NCBI RefSeq assembly: GCF_058153355.1
Contig: NZ_CM177019.1
Reading direction: 5' to 3' (one strand)
Length of the DNA: 64,000 nucleotides
A program made the position numbers and the translations under genes. Below, in pieces: positions 9,022-60,123 of this stretch; position 1 is the stretch's first letter, and each line of letters begins with the position of its first letter. Under the pieces are notes generated by a model. It was not told the origin of the DNA and did not search any database. It saw nothing but the letters and a program-made list of their open reading frames with translations.

Positions 9022-10593
9022 TTACTGAGAGCTCAGATCAACTTTCCAGGGCAACAGATCGCGTACCCGGTTTGCCGGCCAGTCCTGGATATGTTCAATG
9101 ACGTAACGCAGCCACTTTTCTGGCTCCACATTGTTCAGACGGCATGTGCCGATCAGCGAGTACAACACCGCAGCATGTTCACCACCGCTGTCAGAACCCG
9201 CGAAGAGCCAGTTTTTCCGGCCTACGGCCACTCCCCGTAAGGCGTTCTCTGCGATGTTGTTGTCGATTTCCACCCAGCCATTACTGCAGTACACGTTCAG
9301 TGCATCCCACTGTTTCAGCAGGTATGCGAACGCTTTTGCCGTGTCCGAGTGACGCGACAGTGTTTTCATCTGTTGCTGTATCCAGTCATACAGTGACTGC
9401 ATCAGTGGCGCGGCTCTGGCTTTTCTTGCCGCCAGACGCTGTTCTGCTGAACAGCCCCGGACCTCTGCCTCGATGGCATACAGTTCACCGATACGCTGCA
9501 GGGCTTCCGTGGTGATGTCGGTGGGCACTCTTGCATGCACATCGTGGATTTTTCTCCGGGCATGAGCCATACATGCGGCTTCCGTTATTCTGCCGGATTC
9601 GTACAACGCCCGGTAACCACCGTAAGCATCGGCCTGAAGCACTCCGCTGTAACCGGCCAGATGATTCTGTGGATGGATACCTTTCCGGTCCGGGCTGTAC
9701 GCGAACCAGACCGCCGGAGGCATTTCCGAACCGGCGTTACGGTCATCACGAACGTAGACCCACAGCCGGGCAGTCCTTGTTTTACCGCTGCCCGGCTCCT
9801 GGACCGGAACGGGGATATCATCGGCATGGACTTTACCGGGCATCAGCACATACTGGCGCAGGATGTCATACAGCGGTTCCAGCAGTTCAGCAACAGCACC
9901 TGTCCAGCGCCCCAGTGTGGCACGGCTCAGCTCCACGCCCTGACGACGGTATATTTCTGACTGGCGGTATAACGGCAGATGGTCTGCATATTTTCCAGCG
10001 ACAACATGGGCCAGAAGCCCCGCTCCGGCATAACTGCGTGCAATGGGTTTTGAAGGCACCGGAGCCTGCACGATATGGTCGCACCGGCAACAGGCCAGTT
10101 TCGGACGTTGTGTTTCGATAACCTTAAAGGCGCTGCTGATAAGCTCCAGTTGCTCTGACACATCACATCCCAGAGAACTGAGTTCGCCACCACAGGCCGG
10201 GCAGCATTCCTCTTCCGGACGGATGACCCGGGTTTCACGGGGAAGTGAGGCAGGTAACGGTTTACGGGCTGAAGACTGGCGCAGGGGAGATGGCAGTACC
10301 GGGTCATATTGCTCACCCAGCGTTTCCGCCATTTCTTCCTGAAGAGCGCTGATTCGCTCCTGTGCTTCCTGTATCTGCCGTTCGGTTTTTGCACGAAGTT
10401 TTTCTGAGCTTTTACCGAACTGCATGCGCTGCAGTTTTGCAACCAGCGCCTTCAGCCGGTTGATTTCGGAAGCATAAGCCGCCACCCGCTGTGAGAGCAG
10501 GCGGTTGTATTTCGCCATCTGGCGGATGGTGTCCTGTTGCGTCTGCAACAGTGCCCGCAGGCGGGCATTCTCATGAGCAAGTGAGGTGTCCAT
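9022..10593 (-). CDS. IS66-family transposase TnpC
   Basis: 523 aa; coiled-coil N-terminus, Cys-rich zinc-finger motif CPACGG...CCRCDH, DDE-type core. Confidence 0.85.
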
Positions 10594-48791: not shown

Positions 48792-49589
48792 ATGCTGGCA
48801 AAAGATAGGACTAACCTAAAGATTGAAGAAATACGGATGCATAAACATCATGAGATTCACAGGGTTAAGCCTCTTATGCCAGCTTTATGTCGTATCCGTC
48901 AGGGAAAAAAAGTTATCAATTGGGAGACGCATAGTCTAACTGTTGATAATAATCAGATAATATTATTTCCCTGTGGATATGAATTTTATATTGCGAATTA
49001 CCCAGAAGCAGGTCTTTATCTTGCAGAAATGCTTTATTATCCCATTGATCTAATTGAAAAGTTCCAAAATCTTTATGCGATAACCGATCAAATTCGTAAC
49101 ACGACAGGTTTCTGCTTACCTCAGAATCCCGAGTTAATATATTGTTGGGAGCAACTAAAAACATCTGTTTCCCGAGGCTTCTCAACGCAAATTCAGGAAC
49201 ACTTAGCAATGGGCGTTCTACTTTCATTAGGAGCACATCATGTTAATTGTTTACTTTTATCAGATAGTAAACAATCATTAATAAGTCGTTGTTATAACCT
49301 AATGCTATCCGAACCTGGAACAAAATGGACAGCAAACAGGGTAGCGAGATATCTCTACATTTCTGTTTCCACATTGCATCGCCGTCTGGCAAGCGAGGGA
49401 GTAAGTTTTCAAAGTATATTGGACGACGTGAGGTTAAATAATGCGTTGTCTGCTATACAAACGACAGTAAAACCCATCAGCGAGATTGCCAGGGAAAATG
49501 GTTACAAGTGTCCTTCTCGTTTTACTGAAAGGTTCCATAATCGTTTTAAGATAACACCAAGAGAGCTAAGAAAAGCGTCCAGAGAGTAA
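48792..49589 (+). CDS. AraC-family transcriptional regulator (YbcM-like)
   Basis: C-terminal AraC-type helix-turn-helix; true start may be an internal Met near 48837. Confidence 0.7.
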
Positions 49590-50090
49590 AAGTATTTTAT
49601 GAAGGAGCAACAGCATCGATTTTTATTTTGGAAAATCAATACGGCATACTCAACCTATTGGAGCCTGAACAATCCGGTGACTTCTGCGCTAATCGGGGAC
49701 GTTTATAAGCACATATAATTGATACTCTCTTCCTCCATCACAATTTCAGAAATGCACGTGTGATTTTTTGGCATCCGGCGTTTGGACTATGTGGAGTTCA
49801 AGAGTGGGAAAGTTACAAGAGGTTGAGGGGATAATTAAAGGGATGCTTATGACATTAGATATCCGGTTAGGTACGGATATCGTTGTTATTAAATCTAATT
49901 GATACGTTAATTGTTCACTGAGTATTATTAAAAATGGGGCGTTGAAACGCCCCAGAAAATAAAGGGTAATATATAACAGAAGGTTTATATAGTCAGAAGC
50001 AAGATAGCGCTTCTAAGGAAAGTGGCTTGAGGGGGCCACTTATATGTTGGGGAGGCAAAGCCTCCCACAACATATCTTTGAGTAATCAGA

Positions 50091-51173
50091 TTAGAACTGG
50101 TAAACCAATCCTACAGCAACGATATCATCGGTAGCAACGCCAGATGCTTTCGTGAAATCGCTCTTATCAATCAGGTTGATTTTGTAATCAACAAAAGTGG
50201 ACATATTTTTGTTGAAGTAATAGGTTGCACCTACATCAATATATTCAACCAGGTCCTGATCACCCCACGCACCCAAGTCTTTTCCTTTAGATTGCAGGTA
50301 AGCAACGGACGGACGCAGACCGAAGTCGAACTGATATTGTGCAACTACTTCGAAGTTTTGTGCTTTGTTGGCAATATGGTTATTACCAAAAACAGTCATG
50401 TTCTGGGTTTCAGAATAGGTGGTAGCCAGATAGATGTTGTTCGCATCATATTTCAGACCAGCTGCCCATACTTCAGCATTTTGACCAGATGCATTCAGGC
50501 TGTTGTTACCGTAGATAACCTGATCATTAGTGCGGTCAGATTTAGCATAGGTTGCACCTACACCGAATCCTTCATACTCATAAGTAGTGGAGAAACCGAA
50601 ACCATCACCGTTAGCTTCAGTTACGTCAGTGCGGTCATTTTTACCCTGATACTGAGCAGCAAAGTTCAGACCATCAACCAGACCAAAGAAGTCGTTGTTA
50701 CGATAAGTTGCAACACCTGTGGTGCGACCAGTCATGAACACATCTGTTTGGGTCCAGGTATCGCCACCGAATTCTGGCAGAACGTCGGTCCATGCACCGA
50801 TATCGTATGCTACACCGTAGTTACGGCCATAATCGATGGAGCCGTAGTCACCGAATTTCAGGCCAGCGAAGGCAAGACGGGTTTTATCTTTGGAAGAACC
50901 TTGAGATTCAGCACGGTTGCCTTTGAATTCATATTCCCACTGACCGAAACCAGTCAGTTGATCGTTGATTTGGGTTTCGCCTTTGAAGCCCAGACGAACA
51001 TAAGTTGTGTCGCCATCATCTGCATCGTTAGAAGAGAAGTAGTGCTTAGCATTAACTTTTCCGTACAGATCCAGCTTGTTACTGTCTTTATTGTAAATCT
51101 CTGCTGCCTGAGCAGACATCGCCATCAGTACTGATGCAGCTACAGCAGAAATTGCCACTGTTAATTTTTTCAT
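50091..51173 (-). CDS. OmpC/NmpC-family outer-membrane porin (prophage-type)
   Basis: 360 aa; signal peptide [24 protein letters not shown]-terminal VGLVYQF; several downstream hairpins. Confidence 0.8.
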
Positions 51174-51504
51174 CGTGAGCCCTTTTATTTGAACTATTAT
51201 TTAAAAATGATGTCACTGCACCACAAATATTCATCTAATCAATGAGATTATTTCAAGATGTAAGTTTTAGTTTCTCATTTAAATTGTGAAGTAGATCCCT
51301 ATTTTTATCTGAACTGTTTCTATTGCACACAATGCATGACTATTTTGTGAACGAATATAAATTTGGTAGTCAAATTATATTAAAGGTTGTTATTTATGAT
51401 TGACTCATAATTTATTTATTTAATTTAAATAGCCTAAAAATAACCATGGAGATTATTTGCATGATATTTGTTTAGATTTGTTAATGTAGTTGAGGTGATT
51501 TTAT

Positions 51505-52177
51505 TTAATACGCAATATAGCGCCGCTTGATATTAGTTCTATTTTTTTTTTGCGTAAGATAGATGAGACAAACTGAGACGCATAATGGTTTGCAAGGCTC
51601 TAATACTTTGATGTTGAGGATGTGATGGGGCATGTACGTGCATAGTACAATGATGTCCATGCCGGTGTGGATAATCTCCAGGCTTATCCGGTGCGCCGTA
51701 AAACCCCGTCCTTCAGGGCGGGGATATAAGGCGCGGTTTTCCACCTGACCAGGTGTTTGCTGTTGTTCAATGTATTGGCGGATGACGGATATTGGCGCAC
51801 CTCCGCAGCTACTGGCAAAATAGCCGGGACTCCACAAAACGCCTTTGTAGTAATACCTGACTGCAATATCTGGTCGATCTCGTCGCAGTAATCTACCCGA
51901 TACGCCTTTGTGGCTGTTTACCAGACTGGATATCGCCAGTTTGGGAGGATAGTTAATTAACAAATGGACGTGATTCTGGTTCGCCATCCATTTCAACCAG
52001 TTCAGCTTCAAAATCAGCACATACATTTGAAAAGTAAGTGCGTAGTTTTTCTGTCGCGTCATGGTCAAAAATCTGACGTCGGTATCTGGTGACAAAGACC
52101 CGGTGAACATGCATCAGAAAAACACAGTGCCTTCCACGCCGGATATCGGTTTCTTTTTTCACAGACCAAAGTATCAT
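51505..52177 (-). pseudogene. IS200-type Y1 transposase TnpA, frameshifted (3' limit approximate)
   Basis: N-terminal ORF 51953-52177 and a C-terminal part in another frame (NQNHVHLLINYPPKLAISSLVNSHKGVSGRLL...APISVIRQYIEQQQ); one extra base near 51970-51980 separates the frames. Confidence 0.6.
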
Positions 52178-53440
52178 TTGGCCTGTGAAACGACTACAAG
52201 CATTTAAATTCCAGTTAAGACCAGGTGGTCAACAGGAGCGTGAAATGAGGCGCTTCGCAGGCGCATGTCGTTTCGTTTTCAATCGTGCTCTGGCACGTCA
52301 GAATGAGAATCATGAGGCCGGTAATAAATACATCCCTTACGGGAAAATGGCTTCCTGGCTGGTTGAGTGGAAAAATGCCACTGAAACGCAATGGCTTAAA
52401 GATTCGCCCTCACAGCCATTGCAACAGTCACTGAAAGACCTTGAGCGGGCTTACAAAAACTTCTTCCAGAAGCGGGCTGCTTTTCCCCGATTCAAAAAGC
52501 GGGGACAGAATGATGCATTCCGCTACCCGCAGGGCGTTAAGCTCGATCAGGAAAACAGCCGTATTTTTCTGCCGAAACTGGGCTGGATGCGCTACCGGAA
52601 CAGCCGTCAGGTCACGGGTGTTGTGAAAAATGTCACGGTCAGCCAGTCCTGCGGTAAGTGGTACATCAGTATTCAGACAGAAAGTGAAGTATCCACTCCG
52701 GTTCATCCTTCAGCATCAATGGTCGGGCTGGATGCTGGCGTGGCTAAACTCGCCACGCTGTCAGATGGCACAGTCTTTGAGCCTGTAAACAGTTTTCAGA
52801 AAAACCAGAAGACGCTGGCGAGACTTCAGCGACAGTTAAGCCGCAAGGTCAAATTCAGCAACAACTGGCAGAAGCAGAAACGCAAAATACAGCGACTGCA
52901 TTCCCGTATCGCAAATATCCGCAGGGACTACCTTCACAAAGTCACAACGACCGTCAGCAAAAACCACGCAATGATAGTCATTGAGGATTTGAAGGTCAGC
53001 AACATGTCAAAGTCAGCAGCGGGTACGGTCAGCCAGCCGGGGCGCAATGTCCGGGCAAAATCAGGTTTAAACCGTTCGATACTGGATCAGGGCTGGTATG
53101 AAATGCGCCGCCAGCTTGAGCACAAGCAGCTCTGGAGTGGCGGTCAGGTGCTTGCTGTTCCGCCAGCGTACACAAGCCAGCGTTGCGCGTGCTGTGGTCA
53201 TACAGCGAAAGAAAACCGCCTGTCACAAAGTAAATTCAGATGCCAGGTATGTGGATATACAGCGAACGCCGATGTAAATGGCGCTCGTAACATTTTAGCG
53301 GCGGGGCACGCCGTTCTTGCCTGTGGAGAGATGGTGCAGTCAGGCCGCCCGTTGAAGCAGGAACCCACCGAAATGATTCAGGCGACAGCCTGAACGTAGC
53401 AGGGATCCACGTCCTTCAGGGCGTGGAGGATGTCAACAAA
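51660..53440 (+). mobile_element. IS200/IS605-family element (divergent tnpA and tnpB); boundaries approximate
   Basis: Matching subterminal hairpins ccccgtccttcagggcgggg (51704-51723) and ccacgtccttcagggcgtgg (53407-53426); Y1-type tnpA plus tnpB. Confidence 0.7.
52185..53393 (+). CDS. TnpB (IS605 OrfB-family RuvC-like nuclease)
   Basis: 402 aa; C-terminal zinc finger CACCGH...[18 protein letters not shown]; full length. Confidence 0.85.
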
Positions 53441-54105
53441 CAGGTTGAATTAACTTCGCGCCCTGGTTTTTGACATTACCCACCGCGCGCGACACAGGGT
53501 GCCAGGTGAACTGGTTTGCTGGAACACAGCCACTGGCAGAAATTTCAGAGGCTTCTTTACCGCTAATCTCTTGCCGCATCCATTCCCGCGCAGCTTCTGG
53601 CGACAGTACCAGCGGGCGGCGGTCATGAATATCTACCAGACCCTGGTCTGCTGCTGCAGTGACAATTAAAAATCCTTCGGCTTCGTCACCACGCTCAAAC
53701 GGTGTGCTACCTATCGCGGCTATAAAAACAGGTTGTCCATCAGCGCGATAGATAAAATAAGGCTGTTTTTTTGTCGCCTTCTTTTTTCCACTCAAACCAG
53801 CCATCGGCAAAACAGATTGCCCGACCATGTTGCCAGAGCGGTTTAAACATACGACTGGTTGCCGCAGTTTCTACGCGGGCGTTAATCAGCGGCGGTTTAT
53901 CCCACCATCCGGGAGCATATCCCCAGAAAACCGGATCCAGATGAAGGTGTTCATCACGTTCACTGAGCAGAAGAACTTTGGTTCCCGGCGCGACGTTGTA
54001 TCTGCCAATGGGTTCGGGATCGTAGGGAATATCGCGTTCAATATCTTCCGCGAGAAGCGCAAGGTAATCTTCACGCGTTTGGGATTGGGCAAAGCGTCCA
54101 CACAT
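53433..54105 (-). pseudogene. yedK: SOS-response-associated peptidase YedK, frameshifted
   Basis: N-terminal ORF (MCGRFAQSQTREDY...) and C-terminal ORF (...QPYFIYRADGQP...) in different frames; a 7-T run at 53766-53772 (7 A on the coding strand) where the recalled E. coli gene has 6. Confidence 0.7.
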
Positions 54106-54213
54106 AGCAACCTCCTGAGATCATACTGAAAAGAATAGGAGAGGGGGCGGGTAAAATCTATGTGATGCAGAGGTAACGATGTTCCCGCTGTTGGCCACAG
54201 CGGGAATGAGGGA

Positions 54214-54447
54214 TTACTTCTGAATTAAATAACGAATGGTCGGCCCGTCTTGCTGAATATCCAGCACCGTATAGCCGTGATTACGCGCATCCAGTGGAAT
54301 ATTATTGATCGACTGCGGACAGTCGCTCACCACTTCCAGGATCTCACCTTTTTTTAATTGCGGCATCGCCTCAAGGGTTGCGACTGCCGGATAAGGGCAG
54401 GGTTCACCCACCATATCAAGGCGGTAATCAGGAACGATATTTTTCAT
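54214..54447 (-). CDS. yedF: TusA-like sulfurtransferase-family protein YedF
   Basis: 77 aa; CPxP motif (GEPCPYP). Confidence 0.85.
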   Translation of the reverse strand: MKNIVPDYRLDMVGEPCPYPAVATLEAMPQLKKGEILEVVSDCPQSINNIPLDARNHGYTVLDIQQDGPTIRYLIQK

Positions 54448-55649
54448 GCGATCTCCTTAGCAGTCTGCGGTGCCGCACGGCGGAAGAAGCGTTTTTCCCA
54501 GCCGATAATCAACATCAGCGCAGCAAACAGCAGCAAATATGTCACCAGCAGGCCACCCATCGGACCAAAGGTTTTCAGTAGGTTGATTTTGTCCCAGTCG
54601 GTGGCCAGCGCCGGAGCGAAATCATCCCAGTAATACGCCAGAATCGTTGAGCCGATCACGTTGCCCAGACCGACCCACCAGTAGTGCACCTGGCCTTCTA
54701 CCGCGCGGTACATCCAGCCGGTTTCGCAACCGCCTGCCAGCACGATGCCAAAACCAAACAGTAAACCACCGATTACCGCGTTCGGCCCCGCCCACATGAT
54801 TTTGGGTTCAACGCCTAACTGGACGTAACTGAAGATCCCGATGGCACTTACCGCCATACCGATAATGATTGCTTTCGCCATGTGGGTACGTCCGGTGATC
54901 CACATATCGCGGAACGCCGAAGTAAAGCAGATTTGCGCACGTTCAATCAGTAAACCAAAGCCGACGCCAAACAGCATTGCCAGCCCCAGTTTTGGTTGGT
55001 TCATCGCCGTCAGCAGCGCCCAGCCCAGCATGCCGAAAAAGACCAGCATCCCGAGACGAAAACGACGCCGCGCCTGATCCGGTTTTTGCGTCAGCGGTGA
55101 GGCGGCAGAAACTTTCTGCATTTTCACGGGAATACGGAAGATGGGCAGCAGGGTAAAGCGCGCGCCAAACCATGAACCAATGGCAGTGGCGATGGCAAAG
55201 AACCAGGCATGCAGCGAGAACTGAGGAATGCCGGTAAAGAACGCCGCCAGGTTACAGCCCATTGCCAGACGCGCGCCAAAACCGGCGATAATGCCGCCAA
55301 TGATGGCCTGCATAATGCGGATACGGCTGCGCGGCATGCGTAGTTTGACATTGTTGGCCCACAGCGCTGCAGCAAAGCAGCCGCCAAACATACCGAGGAT
55401 CATCATGCCGTCGATGCGGGTTAATGGCGATCCTTCCAGATGAATAATTTTAAAATAACCCCACTCTTCAGCATGGACGCCGAACAGCTGCAGGAGCTGA
55501 CCGCCCCAACGGGTAAATTCACCCGTGACAGCCCAAAAGGTGCCAGTGATGCCAAAGTAGTAAGTGGAGAGAATACCCGCCGCGATGACCGCAGGGATGG
55601 GTGCCCAGAATTTAATCAACCAGGCGTGTTTGAATTGCTGCCATGACAT
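54444..55649 (-). CDS. yedE: YeeE/YedE-family inner-membrane transporter
   Basis: 401 aa polytopic membrane protein; ATGA overlap with yedF. Confidence 0.85.
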   Translation of the reverse strand: MSWQQFKHAWLIKFWAPIPAVIAAGILSTYYFGITGTFWAVTGEFTRWGGQLLQLFGVHAEEWGYFKIIHLEGSPLTRIDGMMILGMFGGCFAAALWANNVKLRMPRSRIRIMQAIIGGIIAGFGARLAMGCNLAAFFTGIPQFSLHAWFFAIATAIGSWFGARFTLLPIFRIPVKMQKVSAASPLTQKPDQARRRFRLGMLVFFGMLGWALLTAMNQPKLGLAMLFGVGFGLLIERAQICFTSAFRDMWITGRTHMAKAIIIGMAVSAIGIFSYVQLGVEPKIMWAGPNAVIGGLLFGFGIVLAGGCETGWMYRAVEGQVHYWWVGLGNVIGSTILAYYWDDFAPALATDWDKINLLKTFGPMGGLLVTYLLLFAALMLIIGWEKRFFRRAAPQTAKEIA

Positions 55650-55832
55650 GTATGTAGCCTCTGAACTCAGAAGGTTTGAAACAAGAGTCGCGAATCATAC
55701 ATCAAGCAAATTTATTTTCGGGGTAATAATTCACAAAAATAATAGTTAGATCAAATTTCTCTCTGAACCTGGAAAGGCTGGCGACATCAGGGCTTTAATG
55801 CCACAATCCTCTTTTCTTCTCATGCAGGACGA

Positions 55833-56249
55833 ATGATGAAAAAACTCGCAATTGCAGGCGCGCTCATGTTGCTGGCGGGCTGTGCCGAAGTCGAAAACTA
55901 TAACAATGTCGTTAAAACCCCCGCGCCGGACTGGCTGGCGGGCTACTGGCAGACCAAAGGGCCGCAAAGTGCGCTGGTCAGTCCGGAAGCGATAGGCAGC
56001 CTGATTGTCACTAAAGAGGGCGATACCCTGGATTGCCGTCAGTGGCAGCGGGTGATTGCTGTGCCGGGTAAGTTGACATTGATGTCTGATGATCTCACTA
56101 ACGTTACCGTAAAACGTGAGCTGTACGAGGTTGAGCGTGAAGGTAACACCATTGAGTACGATGGAATGACGATGGAGCGTGTGGATCGCCCGACGGCAGA
56201 GTGTGCCGCTGCGCTGGATAAAGCGCCGTTACCGACGCCATTGCCGTAA
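55833..56249 (+). CDS. yedD: Lipoprotein YedD
   Basis: Lipobox LLAGC; about 137 aa. Confidence 0.8.
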   Translation: MMKKLAIAGALMLLAGCAEVENYNNVVKTPAPDWLAGYWQTKGPQSALVSPEAIGSLIVTKEGDTLDCRQWQRVIAVPGKLTLMSDDLTNVTVKRELYEVEREGNTIEYDGMTMERVDRPTAECAAALDKAPLPTPLP

Positions 56250-56282
56250 TGAAATCTCCCCGGCTTGCCGCCGGGGATGAAT

Positions 56283-57770
56283 TTAAATCACCTCTTCGAT
56301 AACCCACACGCTGACGCTGCCGCCGTTGCAAAAGAAGGTCGCTTCGCCGTTTTCGTCGGTCACTACGCTCTCTTGCCGATTCCCCAGAAAATCACGCCAG
56401 GTTTTATTGCCGTAATTCTCTCCCAGATGAATGGTTTTTTCGCCATCATCTCCGTTCGACATGACCACCACGCAGCCGGGATATTCGTCGGTGCCACTGC
56501 GGCTAAAGGCAATGCAGTTCGGATGGTCGAAAAATAACGTCTGTACACCGTGGGCGAAACGCTGACGGGCGAGAATTAACTCATCAAGTTGTTCGATTAT
56601 TGGCATATCTATCGGATAGGTTTGCCCGTCACCGCCGACATCTTCGTAATGCGCGCCATAGAGGTCAGGATAGAACACCGAAGGAACGCCATTTTCCCGC
56701 AACAAAATTAAGGCATACGCCAGCGGTTTAAACCACGGTTCGACCGGCGCTTCGAGGGCTTGCAACGGTTGGGTGTCATGGTTGGCAACGAGGGTTACGG
56801 CGTGAAAAGGATCGGCTTCCACCAGCGTCCCAGTGAAAATCTGCGTCATGTCGTAGTCGCGTCCCATGCGCGATGCTTCATGGAATTTCATCTGCAGCGG
56901 CGCATCGAACAGCATGGTTTTGCCTTCCACCTGATCAATATACGTTTGCAGCTTATCAACTTCATGCGACCAGTACTCCGCCACAATAAACAGCGGCTTT
57001 GGCGCAACTTCTTGTACGTGTTCGACCCACTCTTTATAAAACCAGGCTGGAATATGTTTGACCGCATCAAGACGAAAACCGTCGCATTGCGTTTGTTCCA
57101 TCACCCAGCGCGCCCAGTATTTAATCTCTTCCGTCACGGCATGATTGCGAAAATCGATATTCTCGCCCATCAGATAATCGAAATTACCGAGTTCATCATC
57201 AACCTGATCGTTCCAGCCTTCGCCGGTGTAGTCGTTAACAATTTTAAAAATGCCATCTTCATTGGGGTTTTCGATATGGTCGATACCGCTAAAACATTTG
57301 AAATCCCAGATAAACTGCGAGTATTGCCCGGCACGGGCGGGGAAGGTGTAACGCGTCCAGCCTTCGCATTCAATGATTTCTTCATCAATTTGCGTACGGT
57401 CGTCAGCATTAACGCGCTGCACGCGAATAGCTTCTTTTTCATCCGCGCCCATTTTGTGATTGACTACCACGTCCAGCAGCACCGCAATGTCATTACGTTT
57501 CAGAGCGTCAATGGCGGCCAGCAGTTGTGCTTTATCGCCATATTTAGTAGGGATGCTGCCTTTCTGATCAAACTCGCCTAAATCAAATAAATCATAGGAG
57601 TCGTAGCCGACCGAATACCCGCCCGATGCGCCTTTATAGGCGGGCGGCAACCAGACCATATTGATACCAATATCATTAAAACCGTCGGCGCGCTCGGCCA
57701 GTTCAGGCCAGAGCTTACCGCCTTCCGGGTAATACCAGTGAAAACATTGTAACAGCGTGGGATTACGCAT
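56283..57770 (-). CDS. amyA: Cytoplasmic alpha-amylase AmyA
   Basis: 495 aa; glycoside hydrolase family 13 motifs; no signal peptide. Confidence 0.9.
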
Positions 57771-57847
57771 TCTTCGACTCCATTCAAGGGGAACATTAGA
57801 AGCGTAGCCGTAATCGGATTATTCGCGAGCCATCGGCTCGTTAAGAT

Positions 57848-58213
57848 TCAAAAGAGGTTATCCTGCGGAGCCAGCACAAAGCCGCCCTGATCGCCATAGG
57901 CACTTAACACCGATTTTTGTACCGATGACTGACCGACCAGTTTCGCCAGTTCATCCATCCGAATCTGCAATAACTGCTTTACCCTGCTTTCGTTGTCGAG
58001 AATCAGGCGCAGCATCGGGCGGAGTTGCTCCTGCATCGTGGTGGACGGATCAATCTCTTCAGTCAGATGTGCAATCTCCTGCACCGCATTCACATACGCC
58101 ATTTCGCTGGCGATGAGTTCGTCCCATTGTTCTTCTGTTGCCAGGCGTAACATGAGCTGGCTTTTTTCGACGAGTTGTTGCCAGGCGAAATACAAATGCG
58201 GTGCATGGTTCAT
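57848..58213 (-). CDS. fliT: Flagellar chaperone / anti-FlhDC factor FliT
   Basis: 121 aa. Confidence 0.85.
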
Positions 58214-58623
58214 CAGACTGGGTCCTGAATCAAAGAAGGGGAGAGTAAAGACTCTTTCCAGGCATCGGCAATATTGCGCATTAATGCTTCCACTTCTTCG
58301 ACTGCGGAGACATCGTTGCGTAAATTGGCTTGCAGCAAGCGCCTGACCATATAGCTATAAAGAGCAATCAAGTTTTGGGTTAGTTCGTCTTTGCTCTCTT
58401 CATCAAGACTCACCCGCAGCCCGTTCTCAATGATGTTGATCGCTTTTGACAAAGAGACGCCTTTGCCTTGCTGATTGTTGTCCTGCATAAACAGGCGCGC
58501 TCTAACCAGTGCGCTCAGCACTCCATCAAATAGCATGGTGACCAGCTGCTGCTGGCTGGCGCTCATTACGGCGCTTTCGACGCCAATTTGTGCATAGGCC
58601 TGGGTGCCTTTTGCCGCGTACAT
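58213..58623 (-). CDS. fliS: Flagellin-specific chaperone FliS
   Basis: 136 aa. Confidence 0.9.
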
Positions 58624-58638
58624 AGTTTCTCCTGAAGA

Positions 58639-60054
58639 TTATTTCGAGTTGCTATTTGAGGTGTCGAACTGCTGTGTCAGATAGCTACTGGTGGAGTTAA
58701 GCGAGTTCATTAACACATCTAATTGGGTGAACTGGGCTTTATAGCGCGTCATTAAGGTATCGATACGCTCACTGGCTGCGTTGTACTGGTCGGTCAAATT
58801 ATTCAGCGTTTTGCTGACGCCATCTTTTGCGGCCTGGATTATCCCGGTGGAAGAGAGCCAACTGGTCAGGTTGCTACTAATGCCGGTAGTTACCCCTGTA
58901 CTTTTACCGTCACCTATAAACATTTCACCGATGCCAGCGGCATCTTTTTTTAGTGCCGTTTGCAGTTTGTCGGTCGCGATTTCCAGCTTGCCGGTACTGG
59001 CATCGCTGGTAATGCCAATCTGTGCCAGCGTTTTATAGTTTGAACTGCTGTGAGTATTGGCGAGCAAGGTTTTAAGCTGAGTCTGGATGGTACGCAGTGT
59101 GGAGTCACCAAGTAATGCTCCATTACTGGAGTCCTGACTTTCTGCTCCGGCATCGACAGCGGTGTATTTGGTTAAGCTACTGAATGTATCCTGCAATGTG
59201 TTATAGGCATCCACCCATGCTTTGACTGCATTTTCAGCTTTGGATGTGTCTTTACTGATGGTCAGTGTCTGATTACCGGTGGTGACGTCATTCAGGTTGA
59301 GTGTGATATCTTCCAGCGCGTCGCTGATAGTGTTACTGCTGTTTTCAATCTCAACGTTATTGACTGTTAGTTTGGCGTTTTGCGCGGTGACGCTTTCAAT
59401 CATGCCATTGCTGCTATCACCCGACGTTCCGTTGTAACCCATAAAACTTTCCAGGGCGCTGTCGCCGCTGACGCTAAGTTTCATAGCGTTATCGTTGCCC
59501 GTATCGTTAGCGGTGATGGACAGACGATATTCGCCGTTTCCCACATTGATGATACTGGCGCTGACACCAGCTTTGGCGTTGTTAATGGCATCGCGAATGC
59601 CGGAAAGTGACGAGTTAGCCGCGCTGATATCAATCGTGACCGGATCTTTACCGCCGCCTTGCTGGATGGTCAGTACGCTATCGCTGGTAGCGATGGCAGC
59701 TTTACTGTCTTTTTGACTAATTTTTGTGGTCAGCGTTTGTGCCTGCGCCAGTTGGCTAACGCTAATGGTGAATTTCCCGGCAATCGCGCTGCCCGTGGTG
59801 GTGGCGCTGAAAGCCGATGAACTGCTGGTGGTTGAAGTGGCGGTAAATAAATCGGCTTTATTCAGTGCTGTGTTGGCTGTCTGGAAACTCTCTAGTGCAC
59901 TTTTCAGCGTCCCGTAGGCGCTCAGTTTCGCGGTGTAAGAGCTTTGCTGTTTTGATATCGGCGTCAGGGTAGATTTTTCTGCCGCCTCCAGACTGTCAAG
60001 GATGCTGCTTAAGTCCAGCCCCGACCCAACCCCAAGCGTTGAAATACTAGCCAT
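58639..60054 (-). CDS. fliD: Flagellar filament cap protein FliD
   Basis: 471 aa starting MASISTLGVGSGLDL. Confidence 0.9.
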   Translation of the reverse strand: MASISTLGVGSGLDLSSILDSLEAAEKSTLTPISKQQSSYTAKLSAYGTLKSALESFQTANTALNKADLFTATSTTSSSSAFSATTTGSAIAGKFTISVSQLAQAQTLTTKISQKDSKAAIATSDSVLTIQQGGGKDPVTIDISAANSSLSGIRDAINNAKAGVSASIINVGNGEYRLSITANDTGNDNAMKLSVSGDSALESFMGYNGTSGDSSNGMIESVTAQNAKLTVNNVEIENSSNTISDALEDITLNLNDVTTGNQTLTISKDTSKAENAVKAWVDAYNTLQDTFSSLTKYTAVDAGAESQDSSNGALLGDSTLRTIQTQLKTLLANTHSSSNYKTLAQIGITSDASTGKLEIATDKLQTALKKDAAGIGEMFIGDGKSTGVTTGISSNLTSWLSSTGIIQAAKDGVSKTLNNLTDQYNAASERIDTLMTRYKAQFTQLDVLMNSLNSTSSYLTQQFDTSNSNSK

Positions 60055-60096
60055 ATAGATTCCTTAATCATGCGACGTATAGAACGAATATCGAGG

Positions 60097-60123
60097 TTAT
60101 CGGCGTAAGCGGGGCAAAGTTTA
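60097..60123 (-). promoter_or_regulatory. Sigma-28 (FliA) promoter for fliD
   Basis: Minus strand reads TAAACTTT-N11-GCCGATAA, close to the sigma-28 consensus TAAAGTTT-N11-GCCGATAA. Confidence 0.65.

Follow-up and report, generated by a model that had tools for sequence, protein, structure and literature searches.

Evidence for a single-adenine insertion splitting the Escherichia coli gene yedK

The window, that is, the whole stretch of 64,000 nucleotides of contig NZ_CM177019.1 (assembly GCF_058153355.1) that was analysed, carries on its minus strand a copy of yedK, whose 3' end runs into an IS200/IS605-family element. The features considered below are the following:

53433-54105, minus strand: yedK pseudogene (SRAP, abasic-site processing protein), 673 nt against the normal 672
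54111-54116, minus strand: ribosome-binding site of yedK, AGGAGG, intact on reading the sequence
53766-53772, minus strand: frameshift site, seven A on the coding strand (seven T on the plus strand), six A in normal alleles
53782-53787, minus strand: neighbouring run of six A (run 1), unchanged in the window, taken as control homopolymer
53740-54105, minus strand: ORF1, 121 aa, that is, 113 native residues and an aberrant eight-residue tail, TALFYLSR
53433-53765, minus strand: C-terminal half of yedK, residues 114-223 including His160, in the +1 frame
51689-53437, plus strand: IS200/IS605-family element, 1,749 bp with a 1-nt boundary ambiguity, delimited by empty-site comparison
52185-53393, plus strand: tnpB/insQ, intact, 402 aa (Pfam OrfB_IS605, Cas12f1-like_TNB and HTH_OrfB_IS605)
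51505-52177, minus strand: tnpA (Y1 transposase), frameshifted, with Y1_Tnp in two frames

The frame opened by the yedK start codon (ATG, 54105-54103) begins with MCGRF, with Cys2 straight after the initiator Met as in SRAP proteins, holds Asn75 and Glu105, reads EGDKK just before the aberrant tail, and ends at a premature TGA (53742-53740). Around the frameshift site the coding strand reads GGC GAC AAA AAA ACA GCC. The +1 frame resumes at CAG (53765) and continues to a stop at 53435-53433; this second half has neither the N-terminal Cys2 nor an evident translation start. The two open reading frames matched the Pfam SRAP profile (PF02586, cut-off 27.1) over positions 1-120 of 214 (ORF1, E=1.2e-26, 94 bits) and 111-214 of 214 (ORF2, E=2.4e-21, 76.7 bits), jointly spanning positions 1-214. 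When one A is removed, yedK encodes a single 223-aa protein, matching the solved YedK structures (6KCQ, 2ICU, 6NUA and others) over residues 1-222 with E of about 1e-153; it is about 97% identical to the crystallised YedK and differs from the K-12 protein by six substitutions.

The original prediction had named the gene, its coordinates and the 7-base run, all of which agree with our reading of the sequence and with Pfam; its placing of MCGRF with Cys2 on the N-terminal frame and of the C-terminal half in another frame past the run is borne out by the ORF1 translation and by the +1 frame, respectively. Its proposal of a +1 insertion that disrupts yedK at an A6 homopolymer is supported. Asn75, Glu105 and His160 do not lie on one polypeptide, His160 being encoded only in the +1 frame, and in place of one unbroken frame of about 222 aa there are 673 nt with a premature TGA. 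The window's yedK is a member of the SRAP family by descent, as a pseudogene, and not a functional member.

The 3' end of the gene was shaped by the insertion sequence. The empty sites (L007, L009, L005 and L023-L032 among the comparison loci) read ...CAA CCT GTT TGA TAA GCC..., which places the element between TG and A of the native yedK stop (TG/A TAA), with its right end at 53436/53437, a 1-nt ambiguity and no duplication at the junction. The IS-bearing gene now ends in GTT TGT TGA: in the Cys223 codon (TGT, 53438-53436) the final T (53436) comes from the element, as do all three bases of the new stop (53435-53433). Thus, IS-bearing E. coli YedK has 223 residues and IS-free YedK 222, because the right end of the element adds Cys223 and TGA. 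The element had been predicted to end about 7 bp past the yedK stop; the empty-site comparison contradicts this, as the present stop lies inside the element. The related E. coli loci that we compared have the same junction together with the intact 223-aa form of yedK, so the insertion is unrelated to the frameshift. Coherently with the IS200/IS605 family, the element carries genes for a Y1 transposase, TnpA, and for TnpB (NCBIfam guided_TnpB, 383 bits, cut-off 100), has a subterminal hairpin near each end (at 51704-51723 and at 53406-53427, each with z about -2.6) and shows no terminal inverted repeats or target-site duplication.

Just beyond the element lies a gene for an OmpC/PhoE-like porin of 360 aa (50091-51173, minus strand). 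A porin occupies this position downstream of yedK in some E. coli, while others have ybcM or directly fliE after yedK, and the structure of the region downstream of yedK is variable. The porin sequence is very common (15,741 index blocks), and its look-up yielded examples of the empty site and of yedK with five A. Elsewhere in the window, in prophage-like DNA, a gene for an IpaH-family type III secretion system E3 ubiquitin ligase stands beside an IS66 transposase gene (14053-15696 and 9022-10593, both on the minus strand). It scored 563 bits against NCBIfam IpaH_Shig (cut-off 550), which suggests an EIEC/Shigella-like background. Despite IpaH, fliC and the flagellar genes of the window look intact.

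Then, we compared the length of the run with that of other E. coli. Against complete RefSeq E. coli genomes, the best matches of the flanking 25 kb of the window were 96-98%, and the two closest complete-genome yedK alleles (99.3% and 98.1%) have six A and are annotated as intact. The six A given for E. coli in the original prediction are right, the closest alleles having that length, and the comparison with related strains that it had proposed gave relatives of the same haplotype with six A and an intact 223-aa protein. As run-length query we used 87 nt centred on the 7-A run, which matched 5,374 complete RefSeq E. coli genomes. None of the 5,374 reached at least 99% identity to this query, which would not separate 7-A alleles with differing flanks, such as those of K-12 type, and all 60 among the matches listed spanned 86 nt. 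A second 87-nt query, shifted by 9 nt and taken from another 7-A locus (L006), gave the same outcome, with no 7-A complete genome; it was redundant, since the flanks of 40 nt on either side are identical between the haplotypes. Six A with a single open reading frame are thus found in more than 99% of E. coli and in essentially all of the approximately 5,374 complete genomes.

The seventh A is present in sequences other than that of the window. The exact 121-aa product of ORF1 occurs in the public protein collection and on 15 contigs; the 131-aa second frame of the window had no exact match in the look-up of the same collection. A Logan contig (L011, from SRR31441161), which recurs in two samples, matches the window at 100% identity over 53409-60105, that is, 6,697 bp including the seven A. 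A 129-kb contig of the TPA assembly GCA_043012465.1 (L041) aligned to 49184-56393 with no mismatches, seven A and one gap, an indel unrelated to yedK. TPA assemblies are built from Illumina reads, and we assume that both contigs rest on short reads obtained separately from the assembly of the window.

The alternative is that the extra A is a homopolymer error of sequencing or assembly and that yedK is in truth intact in the strain, with six A. The same 121-aa product does turn up in frameshift-riddled assemblies too, namely two UG-prefixed records and GCA_026134665.1 (L003, L004 and L008), which are error-rich long-read assemblies with amyA, yedE, fliF, fliH and other neighbours split; the seven A that they show are probably homopolymer errors, and these records should be left out of any count of natural alleles. 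The genes adjoining yedK in the window are full length. The closest intact relative (L013) is 99.03% identical to the window over 20.5 kb with only three indels, and a point in favour of error is that all three are a gained A and lie within 2.2 kb. One of them, in tnpA at 51975-51976 on the minus strand (CAGATC to CAGAATC), destroys a GATC (Dam) motif and is private to the window, being absent from the otherwise identical 7.2 kb of L041 and from all 6-A relatives; an exact look-up of the resulting 74-aa tnpA fragment in the public protein collection found none. Either a basecalling error linked to methylation or a true mutation of this isolate could explain it, and at least one base near yedK may thus be an assembly error. 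On the other side, L011 (6.7 kb, two samples) and L041 (7.2 kb) carry seven A with no other yedK difference, L041 has the intergenic A10 as well, a tract whose length ranges naturally from 7 to 10, and clean contigs of four other Logan runs carry seven A on other haplotypes. Since L011 and L041 both have seven A and the window is not noisy here, we consider the yedK frameshift very probably real in the window's clone, as far as sequence data can tell, and an error very improbable; of the two readings that the original prediction had left open, real inactivation is the one favoured.

We also considered whether the three clustered A gains indicate a noisy assembly and rejected this for the most part, because L041 shows two of the three as well and the A9/A10 tract varies naturally in length. 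This tract is an intergenic run of ten T (ten A in the orientation of yedK) at 51542-51551, between the left end of the IS and the porin gene. It is hypervariable by nature, with a length of 10 in the window and in L041 and of 7, 8 or 9 in other strains.

Regarding the age of the insertion, the repaired 223-aa protein, with the seemingly private Ser189 and Lys217, has an exact match in the public collection, on 19 contigs. L013 and five other loci have six A and, across yedK, a single upstream SNP relative to the window; L013, L015, L020 and L021 share with the window the arrangement yedK-tnpB-tnpA-porin. Ser189 and Lys217 must be older than the frameshift, because the intact 6-A allele carries both; for the same reason we rejected the idea that they represent decay after inactivation. 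As an intact 6-A twin of the haplotype exists in relatives, the frameshift is, judging from these alleles, a recent event on an otherwise intact haplotype.

The same run has changed length elsewhere. Seven-A alleles occur on haplotypes 14-26 SNPs from that of the window and in varied contexts, some with and some without the IS, and likewise for the porin. Those of the L006 and L007 types each have 6-A counterparts in complete genomes that differ solely by the one-base gap, which argues for at least three independent +1 events. Twenty complete genomes, LF82, NRG 857C and MP1 among them, have five A at the same run and match at 100% identity; the frequency of five A is about 20-26 in 5,374 complete genomes, against 0 in 5,374 for seven A. 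In our set the 5-A loci are L036 (E. coli LF82), L037, L025, L027 and L033-L035, on two haplotypes 28 SNPs apart. The 5-A product has 127 aa and is listed in 874 index blocks, and RefSeq labels the yedK genes of LF82 and of an O170:H18 strain "frameshifted" pseudogenes. By their predicted product, the 5-A strains are natural yedK-null strains.

Other homopolymers of the gene behave in the same way. At the control A6 run (53782-53787), predicted +1 products were found on four contigs and -1 products on five, while the T5 run of yedK gave a predicted frameshift product on one contig; frameshifts are thus commoner at the A6 runs than at T5. Since several homopolymer runs of yedK are hit, A6 more than T5, this is ordinary slippage in a dispensable gene, and the frameshifted tract is no special switch. 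Across E. coli, nucleotide variation in yedK is concentrated in the 3' half, with only five variable sites before the tract and dozens beyond. Haplotypes as far as 21 SNPs from the allele of the window share an identical 121-aa N-terminal protein.

According to the mechanism that we propose, the second A6 tract of yedK (codons Lys112-Lys113) would have grown to A7 through the gain of one A by replication slippage. Ribosomes that initiate at the intact start codon, behind an intact ribosome-binding site, would leave the frame after Lys113 and stop eight codons later, and the resulting 121-aa fragment would retain Cys2, Asn75 and Glu105 and lack His160 as well as everything in the C-terminal half of the SRAP fold. 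Work on YedK (PMC9436759) assigns the thiazolidine cross-link with the abasic site to Cys2; ring opening and Schiff-base formation require Glu105, and His160 takes part in ring opening, with H160A at least 10-fold slower. Since ORF1 lacks His160 and half of the fold, and the second half lacks Cys2 and a start, no functional abasic-site cross-linking protein should be expected from the window's yedK, as far as the truncation allows us to infer. As yedK is dispensable, such alleles turn up sporadically and at times become fixed.

This expectation would fail if the frameshift were leaky or programmed, so that useful YedK was restored by slippage of RNA polymerase or by tRNA-Lys slipping +1 in the ribosome on AAA-AAA-A. 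A P-site tRNA-Lys on the 7-A run can re-pair perfectly one base downstream, re-entering the frame at CAG, and poly-A tracts are known slippage sites, although selection against slippage-prone runs is evident, in many bacterial genomes, only from about 9 nt, and the run here is shorter, at 7 (PMC1088944). The frameshift configuration is also not conserved among homologues in the approximately 5,374 complete genomes, with the 6-A single frame prevailing in more than 99% of E. coli, and the site has neither a prfB-like in-frame stop nor a closely spaced Shine-Dalgarno stimulator. Any rescue would be expected at the per-cent level at most. We thus regard a leaky or programmed gene as extremely improbable.

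A further reading is adaptive loss, in which the A6 tract would serve as a mutational on/off switch and loss of YedK would be favoured in some pathovars. The repeated, independent +1 and -1 events at one tract would fit such a switch, as would the expansion of the 5-A clade (874 index blocks), with the allele fixed in AIEC LF82, and the pathovar-type content of the window (IpaH). However, the adjacent A6 and T5 runs show like events, with a frequency that falls with run length, and seven A are absent from the 5,374 complete genomes. Known contingency tracts are far longer than A6, and in place of a long hypermutable tract with common ON and OFF lengths we found 6-7 nt, with control runs that behave alike. 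In the literature searched we found no in vivo phenotype of an E. coli yedK deletion, and no phenotype data that would speak for a benefit of its loss. A mutational switch is therefore very improbable, and we likewise give very little credence to positive selection for YedK loss in host-adapted or pathogenic lineages (five A in the AIEC LF82 clade, seven A in the IpaH-carrying clone). Were loss selected, the benefit could be relief from toxic DNA-protein cross-links or, alternatively, a shift of damage tolerance towards mutagenic bypass.

The window's yedK is an ordinary homopolymer-frameshift pseudogene that involves no new mechanism. It resembles homopolymer-slippage pseudogenes in general, from which it shows no notable difference: a single base gained in a short mononucleotide run of a non-essential gene, recurrently and at low frequency. 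With E. coli YedK (the HMCES orthologue; 6KCQ, 6NUA and 2ICU) it shares the position downstream of yedE-yedF; it differs in the frame broken after Lys113 and in belonging to an allele family that ends in an extra Cys223 through the IS in the stop codon. The yedK pseudogene of LF82, NRG 857C and about 20 other complete genomes involves the same gene and the same A6 tract and leaves a similar truncated N-terminal SRAP fragment (127 aa there, 121 aa here), with the difference that it arose by -1 (five A) and the window's by +1 (seven A), on different haplotypes and with independent origins. Public assemblies already contain the exact 7-A allele, and its 5-A sister already bears the annotation "frameshifted".

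The significance goes little beyond annotation. In the window's strain, yedK should be annotated as a frameshifted pseudogene, and the strain would be expected to be without YedK-mediated protection of abasic sites in single-stranded DNA. Several lineages contain natural yedK-null E. coli, with seven A here and five A in LF82, NRG 857C and MP1, and these offer ready-made material for testing what bacterial SRAP proteins do in vivo, which is still poorly defined.

Two observations concern the transposase genes of the element. The tnpA allele has lost its stop (TAG to CAG), giving a 224-aa read-through in relatives against 143 aa (L002, L016 and L038 compared), and PGAP marks the related copy of E. 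coli 2013C-4282 (L001) as incomplete. An Rfam search near the 3' end of tnpB returned sub-threshold matches only, three of which, HgcC (E=0.044), RAGATH-18 and sot0042, converge on 53266-53449 (plus strand), at the tnpB 3' end and the right end of the element. This is where the TnpB guide (omega) RNA would be expected, a lead rather than a demonstration; the guide of such a putative RNA would be the flank CAAACAGGTTGAATTAAC..., antisense to the last yedK codons.
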